Notes: generated by a model not told the origin, from the sequence alone. DNA of 64,000 bases from a virus (IMGVR_UViG_3300040801_004562:34253-98252); one strand, 5' to 3'; shown: positions 15,337 to 50,472, numbered from the stretch's first letter. Made by a program: numbers and translations.

Positions 15337-16278
15337 ATGAGCCCGAGTACAAAGACTATCCTGGAGAAGGCCGATATGGCGGTTGCCGATCTGGTTTCCA
15401 ACGGCGGCTACCTGAACCCGATGCAGGCGAACACGTTCATTCGGATGATGATTGAACAGCCCACCCTGCTGAATGAAATCCGCGTGGTTCCTATGAACGC
15501 GCCGACGATGGAGATCAACAAGATCGGCTTTGCCGACCGGATCCTTCGTCGCGCTCCTGCCAGCGGCACCGCCCTTTCTGCAAGTGACCGCAGCAAGCCC
15601 TCCACCGACAAGGTGGAACTCGCGACGAAAGAGATCATCGCCGAGGTGCACATTCCGTACGACGTCCTGGAGGATAACATCGAGACCGGGCGCCTGGAAG
15701 ACACCATCATGGCGCTGATTGCCGAGCGTTCTTCGCTGGACCTGGAAGAGCTGCTTCTTCAAGGCGACCTCGGCTCAGGGGACAGTTACCTTTCCCTGAT
15801 GAACGGGATGCTGAATCAGGCGCAGTCCCACGTTGTCGATTTTGTCTCTGTCCAGCCTACGATCACCAAAGCGGTTTTCAAGGCCGGGCTGAAAACCATG
15901 CCCAACAAGTACCTCCGCAATCGGTCCGCGATGCGTTTCTACGTGTCCCCCCATGCGGAGATTGAGTATGCCGACAGCCTCGCCAACCGTGAAACTCCGT
16001 TCGGCGATACCAAGATCACCGGGTGGACCCCGAACTTTGCGTATGGAGTGCCTGTCAAGGCGGCTGCTTTGATGCCGAATGACAAGTACCTGTTCACATG
16101 GCCGAAGAATTTCATTCTGGGTATCCAGCGGAAGATTATGATCGAGACCGATCGCGACATCCGTGCCCGAGTGCTGATTGTCGTCCTGACCATGCGGATC
16201 GACATCAAGTACGAGGAGGAAGATGCCGTTGTGAAGTGCCTCGGCCTGAATGTTGGTAACGTTTCCACCACAACGTAA
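15337..16278 (+). CDS. major capsid protein (HK97 fold, XkdG/P2-N-like); ends STTT
   Basis: GGYLNPMQANTFI, EVHIPYDVLEDNIE, size and synteny. Confidence 0.92.
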   Translation: MSPSTKTILEKADMAVADLVSNGGYLNPMQANTFIRMMIEQPTLLNEIRVVPMNAPTMEINKIGFADRILRRAPASGTALSASDRSKPSTDKVELATKEIIAEVHIPYDVLEDNIETGRLEDTIMALIAERSSLDLEELLLQGDLGSGDSYLSLMNGMLNQAQSHVVDFVSVQPTITKAVFKAGLKTMPNKYLRNRSAMRFYVSPHAEIEYADSLANRETPFGDTKITGWTPNFAYGVPVKAAALMPNDKYLFTWPKNFILGIQRKIMIETDRDIRARVLIVVLTMRIDIKYEEEDAVVKCLGLNVGNVSTTT

Positions 16279-16301
16279 TTCGCAGTAGCGGAGGTGAATA
16301 G

Positions 16302-16601
16302 ATGTCTTTGCCGAAAGTGACACTGCTCGGAGCCCCTGGAAATACGTACACGATCGCCTACGGTACCGGTACCTATGAGTTCACCGCAGGGGTCACCCGG
16401 AAGGTTCCAGTACCGATCGCCCTCGAAGCGAGAAAACGGAAGACACGGGACGGTCGGCCTATGTTCGACATTTCCATGCCTGCCACCATTCTTGACGAGG
16501 CTCGGGCTGAAACCAAGGTACGGATTCCCAAGAAGGCGAAAGCCGCCAGTGAAAAGCAGACTGCACCGGCAGCGCCTCAACAGACCAAGTTAGAGTTGTA
16601 G
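16302..16601 (+). CDS. hypothetical head-associated protein
   Basis: SD GGAGGT; synteny. Confidence 0.65.
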   Translation: MSLPKVTLLGAPGNTYTIAYGTGTYEFTAGVTRKVPVPIALEARKRKTRDGRPMFDISMPATILDEARAETKVRIPKKAKAASEKQTAPAAPQQTKLEL

Positions 16602-16603
16602 CC

Positions 16604-17191
16604 ATGGCTCTTACCACCCATATCGGCGGGGGCGAATCCGACAGCTTCGTTACAGTTGAAGAGGCTGACGGCATCGTTGATTCCCTCTTTACTGACGCCA
16701 GTTTCTGGGAGGATTTATCGGAAACCCAGAAGGAGCTGCGGCTGCAGTTGGGAGCCCAGTTGCTGGGACATTTCCCGTTGCGGGGGCGTCCGGTATTCAG
16801 GAATCAGCGTCTGTGCTTTCCCCGTGATTGCGTGCCCTACGGACAACGGTTCTCAATCCCTGCTGACGTCAAAAAGGCCCAGGTCTGGCTCGCGGCCGAT
16901 GCTGTTCACCGCGCCCTTTCCTCCCTGCCTGATGCTGAAGCCGGGCTTCCGTCGTTGTACGGCAGGCCGTCGCAGATCTCCCTCGGTGGCCTCCTGTCGG
17001 TTTCTTTTTCCGGGGACTCCACGGCTGGGGGATCTCTCGTCGAGCGGATCGCTGCCTCCCTTCCCTTCACAATCCAGATGCAGATGAAAAAGTATATGGC
17101 CCAGATCCGTGGGGGATCTGTTGGAGAGGAGCGAACTTTGTCCACTACCACAACGGTTTTGGTGACCCCAACGACCACCACGACGATTTAG
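16604..17191 (+). CDS. head-tail adaptor (DnaT-like phage family); ends TPTTTTTI
   Basis: SFVTVEEAD...QRLCFPR...IPADVKKAQ. Confidence 0.8.
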   Translation: MALTTHIGGGESDSFVTVEEADGIVDSLFTDASFWEDLSETQKELRLQLGAQLLGHFPLRGRPVFRNQRLCFPRDCVPYGQRFSIPADVKKAQVWLAADAVHRALSSLPDAEAGLPSLYGRPSQISLGGLLSVSFSGDSTAGGSLVERIAASLPFTIQMQMKKYMAQIRGGSVGEERTLSTTTTVLVTPTTTTTI

Positions 17192-48103: not shown

Positions 48104-48846
48104 TGAAAAAATTGCTGTTTTGCATTTTGGCGGTAGCGCTCGCGGCCGGTCTGGTTGCTTTCAACAGTCCGGCTGAAGCAAAAGAGGTCAGATTCCGAAT
48201 GGCCTGGGACCAGTACCCACCGGAACCGCCTCTTGATCTGAAGTGGATTCGGATTTACATGCGGACTCCGGATGGGCAGTACGACTACACCCAACCGTTT
48301 CACTCTGAGCCGCAGACGTTTGATGAGAATGGAAGCCATCCGTCGATCACCACGTATCTGACAGTGAACCCGACGGACGGTCAGATCAGCACCTACAAGT
48401 TCGTTGCACGAGCGGAAGGATCAACCCCGGACCGGCAGAGTCCAGATTCGGTGGAGGTGACATGGGACATCGATCTGCGAGCGCTGTTGGCTGTTTCCGA
48501 CCTTGCTGCTGTCTACAACGACGAAGCCGGTTCTGTCGACTTCACCTGGACCCCGGCTGATCCGGACCGCACGAAGAAGTGGCGGCTTTATCAGTCTGAT
48601 TCGGCAACTGGTCCGTGGACTGAGATCGACACCATGGACTGGGACGGCACGACCACGCCCCTGACGGCCAGCAAGCCCATCACCGTGGCCGCAGGTACTG
48701 CTGCAACCTACTATTTCACGGTGGTGGCGTTTGGGGAGCACTCCGTCGCCAGCCCTGATTCCAACGTCGTCTCTGTGACCATTGATCGTAGAGAAACCCC
48801 GGCGGTTGTGAATCTGCGCGTGCTGGTGGAAGAGGCGACGGATTAG
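48100..48846 (+). CDS. secreted tandem FN3/Ig-like protein
   Basis: Signal peptide AEA; two W...Y...Y-F-V-A...S.DS repeats. Confidence 0.75.
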   Translation: MMKKLLFCILAVALAAGLVAFNSPAEAKEVRFRMAWDQYPPEPPLDLKWIRIYMRTPDGQYDYTQPFHSEPQTFDENGSHPSITTYLTVNPTDGQISTYKFVARAEGSTPDRQSPDSVEVTWDIDLRALLAVSDLAAVYNDEAGSVDFTWTPADPDRTKKWRLYQSDSATGPWTEIDTMDWDGTTTPLTASKPITVAAGTAATYYFTVVAFGEHSVASPDSNVVSVTIDRRETPAVVNLRVLVEEATD

Positions 48847-49019
48847 GACAACAAGCCTGACGGCTTTGAATATATATGCAGTGAACAAGATACCGTAATG
48901 AAGGAGGCAGTATGCCTGAACTCAGCGTGATCGTACCCTTTTGTCTCCGATTTAAAGTGACTCAGCAGCCTGCTTGTGGTACTCCCTTTCATAAACTATC
49001 CATGAAAAGGGGGAACCAA

Positions 49020-49472
49020 ATGCGGAGAAAAGTTACGATTAATGGAAAAAGGATCTATCGCTCCCACGCTGTATGGAATGAGACCCACCCGAAAGCCCCA
49101 ATCTTACCCGGAGAAGTGATTCATCACATTGATGGCGATCATGAAAATGACTCCCCAGAAAATCTGAAGAAAATGTCTGATTTTGATCACCGCAGAATGG
49201 AGAGCAAAAATGGAGGAGCGCTCGCACTGGAGAACTGGAGAAAACAGAATCCGGAGAAGGCCAGCATGCTGGGGAAAAGAAATGTAGCGCTCCTTCAGGA
49301 AAAACGGAAGAACGACCCAGAGTGGGCGGAAGAGCTGAGAGAGAAGCAAAGACTGGGGACTATCGCCTCGAACAAAGCTCGCGCTTTTCGAACTCCTGAA
49401 TACATCCGAGAATATAAGCGTATGGCGATGAAACGCTACCGCGCTCGCAAAAAGGAGGCCGAGAATGCCTGA
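49020..49472 (+). mobile_element. HNH homing endonuclease (ORF open from 48912, whose first 11 codons duplicate the start of the next gene)
   Basis: H..VW...VIHHIDGDHENDSPENL...H motif. Confidence 0.85.
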
Positions 49473-50472
49473 GCTGTCCTGCATAATACCCTTTTGTAAC
49501 GAGCACCCGATGATCGAAGTCACCCTCCGCAGCTTGGCAAACGAGCTTGCTGCCGGGGGGATCGACTTCGAGATCATCGCCGTCGACAACTGGACAGAAG
49601 ATGTCGGAAAGCAGCAGGACGCAAAGACCGGGCGTCCATTTGGGAGAGACCGGGGGCATGATCTGGTCGCTTCCATGTCCTCTGTAATCCCCTGGCTTCG
49701 GCGGCTTGAATACAACGAGCGCCTCTCCCACTGGCAGGCAAAGAACTTCGCGATCGAGAACAGCAGCTCCCCGTTCCTCTACTTCTGCGACGCCCATGTC
49801 ATGGTCCACCCCGGTGCGCTGTGCGAGATGTTCAAATTCTACAGCGATTCTGATGCACTCCGGAAAAACGCGACGATCCACCTGCCGTTGACCTACCACA
49901 TTCTTGAGGAGAAGCGGCTGATCTACAGCCTGCGGTGGCGCCCGGAGTTCAACGATCTCGATTACACGTTCTGCGCTGCCAGGACACTTGAGCCGGGGGA
50001 GGAGTGTTACGAGGTGCCCTGCATGTCCACCTGTGGGATGCTGGCAAGCCGAGAGGTTCTCAACCGGATAGGAGGGTGGCCGAAGACCCTCGGAATCTAC
50101 GGCGGGGGAGAACACTTTATCAATTACACGATGGCGGTCCTCGGGATGAAGAAGTTTATTTTTGGGGAAAACCCTTTGTACCACCACGGAGCACCGAGGG
50201 GATACCGCTGGAATGCCGTTGATTACGAACGAAACCGCCTGACCGCTGCTTTCCTGTTCGGTGGGGCCTCCTTTGCCTATGAGCATGCCAGCAAAAGGAG
50301 CCCCCGGAACTTCCCGAATAAGCGGGTCCTCCAAGGAATCTGCCGGGAAGTCGTAAACGACCCCTACCTTTGCGAGTTCCGGGACAGGATCAAAGCTGCG
50401 GCTGTCATAGACATCCACGACTTCATCGAATCCTGGCTATCGTTGCAAACGTTTGCAAAAGTCTCCCCTTGA
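49465..50472 (+). CDS. GT-A glycosyltransferase resembling polypeptide GalNAc-transferases (GT2/GT27-like)
   Basis: SCIIPFCNE, EIIAVDN, DxH motif FCDAH, PCMSTCGML, IGGW...IYGGGE. Confidence 0.85.
   Translation: MPELSCIIPFCNEHPMIEVTLRSLANELAAGGIDFEIIAVDNWTEDVGKQQDAKTGRPFGRDRGHDLVASMSSVIPWLRRLEYNERLSHWQAKNFAIENSSSPFLYFCDAHVMVHPGALCEMFKFYSDSDALRKNATIHLPLTYHILEEKRLIYSLRWRPEFNDLDYTFCAARTLEPGEECYEVPCMSTCGMLASREVLNRIGGWPKTLGIYGGGEHFINYTMAVLGMKKFIFGENPLYHHGAPRGYRWNAVDYERNRLTAAFLFGGASFAYEHASKRSPRNFPNKRVLQGICREVVNDPYLCEFRDRIKAAAVIDIHDFIESWLSLQTFAKVSP
50443..50458. promoter_or_regulatory. 16-bp palindrome, copy 9, 10 bp upstream of a -35 box (TTGACA 50469)
   Basis: Perfect; inside the 3' end of the GT-A gene. 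Confidence 0.85.

Follow-up and report, generated by a model that had tools for sequence, protein, structure and literature searches.

The stretch of viral DNA analyzed here (IMGVR_UViG_3300040801_004562:34253-98252), in the following called the window, comprises 64,000 nucleotides at the end of a 98,252-bp IMG/VR viral contig with an estimated completeness of 80%. In the open reading frame (ORF) call used here, all assigned genes of the window are located on the plus strand, with a virion module extending from about 14 kb to 33.4 kb. Eight proteins encoded in this module terminate in a run of threonine residues, referred to below as a Thr tag, and two glycosyltransferase genes, 33460 and 49465 (named, like other genes below, after their first position), are candidates for decorating these tails with sugars. 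The ten genes are as follows, with coordinates counted from the first letter of the window and endings given up to the last amino acid (aa) before the stop codon.

15337-16278, plus strand: major capsid protein (phrog_1623, E-value 9e-105), ending in VSTTT
16604-17191, plus strand: head-tail adaptor (Ad1; phrog_477, PF20557), ending in TPTTTTTI (STTTTVLVTPTTTTTI)
17207-17371, plus strand: 54-aa virion-module protein, ending in LTTTTTAG
18641-19183, plus strand: tail tube or major tail protein (phrog_807), ending in FTTTTTV
23532-24503, plus strand: tail protein after the tape measure, phrog_687 paralogue A, ending in LTSTTV
24515-25612, plus strand: tail protein, phrog_687 paralogue B, ending in TLTTTTV
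29704-32340, plus strand: J-like tail tip protein (PF13550, Phage-tail_3; PF23666, Rcc01698_C; phrog_1101), ending in PPTTTTEPPPTTTTTV
32523-33401, plus strand: SPRY-domain virion protein (PF00622), ending in KLTTTTV
33460-34728, plus strand: core glycosyltransferase 1, GT4-like with GT-B fold (weak PF00534 and PF13692 matches below the curated cut-off)
49465-50472, plus strand: core glycosyltransferase 2, predicted soluble GT-A enzyme of 335 aa (PF00535)

A preliminary description of the window had drawn attention to the eight Thr-run endings, and all eight were recovered as plus-strand ORFs with exactly the coordinates and endings claimed. Likewise, the identities proposed for the capsid, adaptor, tube, tail tip and SPRY proteins agree with their PHROG and Pfam matches, while the 54-aa protein gave no family match in either collection. 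The Thr codons of the tags are indeed mixed, with ACC, ACG, ACA and ACT all found. Over the whole 98,252-bp genome, a run of at least three Thr within the last eight residues occurs in 8 of 137 plus-strand ORFs, compared with 0.23 tagged ORFs on average and at most 3 after residue shuffling (n = 2000; Poisson P about 2e-10). Moreover, all nine runs of at least four Thr present in the approximately 30,000 encoded residues are no more than 11 residues away from a C-terminus; the adaptor possesses two Thr runs, the second one (STTTTV) being positioned 11 aa upstream of the terminal run. The tags are real and exclusively C-terminal, and within the window all of them are on virion-module proteins. 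A chance origin is ruled out by the eight tags observed versus 0.23 expected, and an artefact from DNA-level repeats or slippage is unlikely, as the codons are mixed and the runs are restricted to gene ends, where they are in frame and on the coding strand. The earlier statement that no non-structural gene bears such an ending holds inside the window; outside it, a ninth tagged ORF (genome positions 24605-24829, 74 aa, ending in FETTTTVTV) was found 9.4-9.6 kb before the first window position, which is not part of the virion module and has no homologue among the collected loci of relatives.

For following the tags in relatives, IMG/VR was searched with the capsid and tube sequences, resulting in 97 loci. 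In dozens of viral contigs, terminal Thr runs are found on orthologues of the capsid, the adaptor, the small protein, the tube and an approximately 420-aa tail protein, with tails ranging from 3 to more than 12 Thr, often 10-12 or more and in some cases including Ser, while other orthologues of the same proteins are devoid of any tail. Specifically, capsid orthologues show 3 to more than 10 terminal Thr or none, tube orthologues have tails of up to 12 or more, versions of the 54-aa protein are kept and tagged at 48-68% identity, and the homologues of about 420 aa corresponding to phrog_687 paralogue A (23532-24503) bear long terminal Thr runs. The tail is positioned after the conserved end of the respective family, in the case of the capsid following ..GLNP.., and a capsid 74% identical to that of the window lacks it, ending in ..GLDPDL (L010/L037). 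Tag state also differs between proteins of one phage, with tagged capsid and tube plus untagged adaptor in the L033-L042 group and an untagged capsid accompanied by other tagged proteins in L051 and L060. These patterns support the view that the tag behaves as a portable element, being found on non-homologous proteins, appended after conserved ends and gained or lost protein by protein, as had been suggested from the window. The final residues of the tails vary among relatives (T, A, S, V, E, AA, AP, SS or VP). Tail tips are mosaic among relatives, and the synteny of the untagged close relative G017 is not traceable via the tail-tip protein. Large tail proteins can be tagged as well: in L084/L085, from position 14447 onward, a protein of 1218 aa, whose gene lies downstream of that for the tape measure, bears a long terminal Thr run (..AYSTTTTTTTTT).

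The GT-A enzyme encoded by 49465 yields an AlphaFold2 (AF2) model with a predicted local distance difference test (pLDDT) score of 90, and in a Foldseek search against the PDB the matches listed (ranks 1-49) are all polypeptide N-acetylgalactosaminyltransferases (ppGalNAc-Ts), with E-values from 1e-15 to 7e-12 and TMq values of 0.61-0.73. In line with this, a profile of the 49465 family finds ppGalNAc-T10, 9, 4, TgGalNAc-T3 and 7 as first PDB matches, and also 12 and 1 (E-values from 1e-8 to 1e-5; profile positions 4-280). ppGalNAc-Ts put the first sugar on Thr/Ser residues of mucins. Residues D109-A-H111 (D-x-H) and H240 are invariant in 12 members of the 49465 family and align to DSH and the Mn-binding His of ..VGH.. 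in PGANT9 and GalNAc-T10, so that 49465 possesses the DxH metal-binding motif in place of DxD as well as the third His ligand. Furthermore, the Y-G-G-G-E stretch containing G214-G215-E216 is invariant, and the resulting Y212-G-G-G-E-(N/H) segment (YGGGEH in the window) aligns to the WGGE(N/Q) Gal/GalNAc-T motif with W replaced by Y. A lectin domain was not detected by Pfam, and neither a hydrophobic segment nor a membrane anchor was found (maximum Kyte-Doolittle value over 19 residues of 0.94); instead of the ricin-type lectin domain of ppGalNAc-Ts, the C-terminal 85 residues are helical in the model (helices 251-327). Since lectin domain and membrane anchor are missing, the enzyme is called GT27-like and not a member of GT27, the CAZy family of ppGalNAc-Ts. 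According to model and motifs, 49465 encodes a soluble GT-A enzyme that agrees with ppGalNAc-Ts in its fold and in its metal and sugar-nucleotide motifs; it presumably acts in the bacterial cytoplasm and is the candidate initiating enzyme.

The second core gene, 33460, is located directly after the last tagged gene, encoding the SPRY protein. The AF2 model of its product (pLDDT 88) retrieves BshA, MshA, PimA, GlgM, sucrose-phosphate synthase and other GT4 enzymes in Foldseek (E-value 4e-11), albeit with low TM-scores of 0.31-0.39, which are assumed to be due to domain orientation. Residues E322 and E330 are invariant and fall into the region aligned to the C-terminal E-x7-E motif of GT4 enzymes.

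Neither enzyme found a match in 50,697 GenBank phage records searched by tblastn; therefore, a cultured model system is not available. In cellular genomes, the 49465 family is represented by six matches in 185,579 species, all on contigs of metagenome-assembled genomes (MAGs; loci L178-L183), four assigned to Desulfobacteraceae or Deltaproteobacteria, one to Thermoplasmatota and one to Thorarchaeota. These matches hint at the host of the phage, which may belong to the Desulfobacterota. Poly-Thr-tailed ORFs are present at two of the MAG loci.

Across related and unrelated viral contigs, the Thr tags occur together with the two core glycosyltransferase genes. A whole-record search covered 32 records, 16 with tagged and 16 with untagged proteins, seven of the latter being at least 99% complete. 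Homologues of 33460 were found in 12 of the 16 tagged records and of 49465 in 11, while none of the 16 untagged records has either gene; the tagged records lacking a homologue, four in the case of 33460, are 26-58% complete fragments. The expectation that capsid and tube homologues bearing the tag would be accompanied by these glycosyltransferases was thus confirmed, both enzymes being present with tags and absent without. The initial proposal of four glycosyltransferases forming one tag pathway applies to 33460 and 49465 as core enzymes, while 42329 is classified as accessory because homologues were detected in only 3 of the 32 records. In a tree of capsids trimmed by their last 15 residues, and thus without the tails, the tag state requires at least six changes, four of them on well-supported branches, and no disagreement between tag and enzyme was seen in any of the 23 records scored.

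The association was also approached from the enzyme side, by a profile scan with the 49465 family which resulted in 66 viral loci. Within 10-kb flanks, tags were seen in only 23 of these 66 loci because the structural genes are often further away; flanks of this size being too short, runs of five Thr codons, (ACN)5, were counted over whole records instead. All 19 enzyme-bearing records with a completeness of at least 90% show 5-235 such runs on the coding strand. In 16 records without the enzyme, 0-4 runs were counted on either strand, with at most two in the seven records of 90% completeness or more, not exceeding what a control pattern gives. The enzyme-bearing records include phages for which no homologue of the present capsid was detected in the vicinity of the tube gene, and also records of 113-277 kb. 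Among the latter, G060, G063, G066 and G068 (loci L157, L164, L167 and L169; 113-277 kb) have a GT27-like gene and 149-235 coding-strand (ACN)5 runs, poly-Thr tracts thus being far more numerous there than in the present phage. The two core genes are 1-6 kb apart in relatives, while here they are separated by a 14.7-kb block composed of three large ORFs without clear family, tailoring genes and an HNH gene.

Regarding the position of the tags on the particle, the tube protein 18641-19183 is homologous to the tube core of YSD1_22 (381 aa; E-value 2e-17) without the outer domains of the latter, and its Thr tail sits where the YSD1_22 chain runs on into further domains, reportedly Ig (immunoglobulin)-like decorations on the outside of the tube. 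This homology suggests an outward orientation of the tube tail, which may take the place of the Ig-like decoration. For the capsid (15337-16278), a sequence search gave no homologue of solved structure.

The further genes of the window that bear on the virion and on a possible elaboration of the glycan are the following.

19818-23531, plus strand: tape measure, untagged
25624-26721, plus strand: third phrog_687 paralogue, untagged
42329-43255, plus strand: accessory GT-B glycosyltransferase (PF13524, Glyco_trans_1_2, E-value 9e-21; Atlas structure matches to GT group 1 clusters)
43256-44185, plus strand: accessory glycosyltransferase with GT-B fold (Atlas structure matches only, GT group 1 clusters)
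44119-44889, plus strand: polysaccharide-deacetylase-like protein (lead from Atlas only)
44886-45626, plus strand: hexapeptide acyltransferase, LpxD-like
45620-46081, plus strand: hexapeptide acyltransferase
45943-46509, plus strand: hexapeptide acyltransferase
46525-47244, plus strand: GFO/IDH/MocA oxidoreductase

The virion module additionally comprises neck genes between the 54-aa ORF and the tube gene as well as lambda-like tip genes. Both the tape measure and the preceding ORF at the chaperone position, whose products remain within the particle or are not part of it, are untagged, which fits an exposed position of the tags. The enzyme inventory given in the preliminary description, consisting of four glycosyltransferases, a deacetylase-like protein, three acyltransferases and a sugar dehydrogenase, stands, with 43256 and the deacetylase being assigned by Atlas only. 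The acyltransferase ORFs 45620-46081 and 45943-46509 overlap by 139 nucleotides in different frames, which is explained either by a later start of the second ORF or by one frameshifted gene. Between 33460 and the tailoring cluster, three large ORFs (647, 612 and 452 aa) occupy window positions 34750-40608, the second one showing a weak Big_1 match; PHROG and NCBIfam searches gave no match for 34750, 39250, 40619, 41799, 47228 and 48100. The HNH endonuclease ORF (48912-49472) starts with MPELSVIVPFC and the adjoining GT27-like gene with MPELSCIIPFC; it seems that HNH insertion gave rise to a recoded second copy of the initial 11 codons of the glycosyltransferase gene while leaving that gene intact.

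Considering the association between tags and enzymes together with the modelled structures, it is likely that the Thr runs are acceptor tags for O-glycosylation of virion proteins in the cytoplasm, with the GT27-like enzyme putting the first sugar on Thr and the GT4-like and accessory enzymes extending and acylating the glycan. In such a pathway, 49465 would transfer a first (Hex)NAc-type (N-acetylhexosamine-like) sugar from a nucleotide sugar to Thr hydroxyl groups of the disordered tails and 33460 would add the next sugar, while in the present phage the two additional GT-B enzymes, the deacetylase-like protein, the acyltransferases and the oxidoreductase might elaborate the glycan or supply an acylated amino sugar. 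Head, neck, tube and tip would as a result be covered by a brush of glycans, possibly serving shielding, colloidal stability or weak adhesion and perhaps replacing the Ig-like domains of homologous tube proteins. The virion is probably sugar-coated. Tags, coupling and enzyme folds are established by computation, whereas the transfer, the kind of sugar, the sequence of steps and the purpose are inferred. The mucin-type acceptor function initially ascribed to the tags is thus supported by tag/enzyme co-occurrence and by the ppGalNAc-T-like fold and motifs of 49465.

Several points weigh against this interpretation. The co-occurrence of tag and enzyme is inflated by relatedness: the capsid tree offers between two (on well-supported branches) and four independent contrasts of tag versus no tag, and a sign test is therefore without power. 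In several enzyme-bearing fragments, which are incomplete records, Thr runs are missing completely. With 3-5 Thr, the tags of the window are short compared to those of relatives, and the ninth tag is on an ORF outside the virion module. The exposure of the tags is deduced from homology, and the phage is uncultured, the particle being known here from its genes alone. Finally, GT4 enzymes also start the O-glycosylation of Ser-rich adhesins, which concerns the question of which core enzyme initiates.

One alternative is that the tails are glycosylated but with 33460 initiating on Thr, similar to GtfA on serine-rich adhesins, and with the GT27-like enzyme extending the glycan or having another acceptor. 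The location of 33460 directly after the last tagged gene, its coupling to tags at least as tight as that of 49465 (12 versus 11 of 16 records) and its best matches being GT4-type folds are in line with this order, but the enzymes which 49465 resembles in fold and motifs are defined by transfer to peptide Thr/Ser, whereas the best matches of 33460 (BshA, MshA, PimA and sucrose-phosphate synthase) act on small molecules or lipids, and GtfA is absent among the 50 Foldseek matches listed. An initiating role of 33460 is consequently regarded as unlikely. Quite improbable is a scenario in which poly-Thr works unmodified, as hydrophilic brush, spacer or beta-strand assembly element, and the enzymes serve the host envelope, DNA or a polysaccharide, being linked to the tags by shared ancestry only. 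While the small number of independent contrasts favors such a scenario and the large sugar-tailoring island of the window could modify host surface glycans, the coupling extends over different capsid families, tail tips and genome sizes from 42 to 277 kb, and the repeated changes of tag state on the capsid tree with full tag/enzyme agreement are difficult to reconcile with it, as are the resemblance of 49465 to peptide-modifying transferases above all others and the near-absence of its family from cellular genomes. A C-terminal T-x-V serving as PDZ-type or protease-recognition motif for assembly, the alternative raised at the outset, in favor of which five of the eight window tags end in T-T-V, is ruled out as a PDZ-type signal because the terminal residues are not conserved among orthologues, which end in T, A, S, E, AA, AP, SS or VP after 3 to more than 12 Thr, and with no PDZ match in Pfam scans of 30 window proteins, representing part of the proteome, a motif of either kind is extremely improbable.

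Beyond the acceptor-tag pathway preferred here for the present phage, a much broader proposal can be made, which is tentative and rather doubtful: a large, near-purely viral family of soluble GT27-like enzymes and portable poly-Thr tags would perform true mucin-type (sugar-O-Thr) glycosylation in the bacterial cytoplasm, coating the entire virion in phages ranging from 42-kb siphoviruses to 277-kb jumbo phages.

Virion glycosylation has been reported for mycobacteriophages (Che8, Rita and others; Freeman et al., 2023, Cell Host Microbe 31:1216, as cited in PMC11256854 and PMC12582341), with glycans described on the major capsid proteins (PMC11256854). Common to those phages and the one analyzed here are phage-encoded glycosyltransferases combined with C-terminal acceptor sites on capsid and tube, established here at the gene and sequence level only, as well as the involvement of major surface subunits and a glycan shield on the particle, the latter being a proposal in the present case. 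In the mycobacteriophages, the glycans are reportedly attached to the C-terminus of capsid and tail-tube subunits. In contrast, an enzyme homology is not detectable, as the GenBank phage set without tblastn match contains Che8, and poly-Thr is absent from the C-termini of the Che8 capsid (..NKTGS) and tube (..YSDGS). Moreover, unlike in the mycobacteriophage system, eight or nine proteins are tagged in the present phage, including the adaptor, the tail tip and the SPRY protein, and its host is probably not an actinobacterium. Phage enzymes that glycosylate the C-termini of capsid and tube are thus known from mycobacteriophages (Freeman et al., 2023, cited in PMC11256854), and the new elements are the use of poly-Thr as tag, the family of the enzymes and how many proteins are tagged. 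In the literature, a description of poly-Thr tails on phage proteins or of GT27-like phage enzymes was not found.

With the ppGalNAc-Ts (CAZy GT27) of animals and some protists, 49465 has in common the GT-A fold, the DxH motif, the GGGE(N/H) counterpart of WGGEN and the third His, and the acceptors deduced here are likewise Thr-rich, Pro-flanked and presumably disordered. On the other hand, sequence identity amounts to only 13-17%, a ricin-type lectin domain, a membrane anchor and a secretory pathway are missing, and the enzyme is viral and presumably located in the bacterial cytoplasm. A different precedent is the GtfA/GtfB system of streptococci and staphylococci, in which a GT4-type GT-B enzyme and subsequent transferases O-glycosylate long Ser/Thr tracts in the cytoplasm, the acceptors being long internal repeats of secreted adhesins. 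The proposed pathway resembles this system in the cytoplasmic O-glycosylation of Ser/Thr tracts by a GT4-type GT-B plus further transferases, and differs from it in the acceptors and in that GtfA is not among the structural matches listed for 33460.

To our knowledge, phages of mycobacteria are the only ones with proven glycosylation of the particle. If the acceptor-tag interpretation is true, sugar-coated virions would be common in uncultured environmental phages, the coat being made by a different enzyme family and covering head, neck, tube and tip via a single type of short terminal tag. Such a coat is relevant to the stability of phages, their adsorption and their recognition, and also to the reading of virion proteomes, as tagged peptides would be missed. 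Likewise, if true, a compact enzyme-plus-tag pair for O-glycoprotein production in bacteria would be at hand; under the broader proposal, it would be a minimal lectin-free pair able to glycosylate any protein in bacteria. The likeness of 49465 to the mucin-initiating transferases of animals raises the question of the origin of that pathway, and should the broader proposal be correct, the catalytic core of mucin-type O-glycosylation would be placed outside the eukaryotes.

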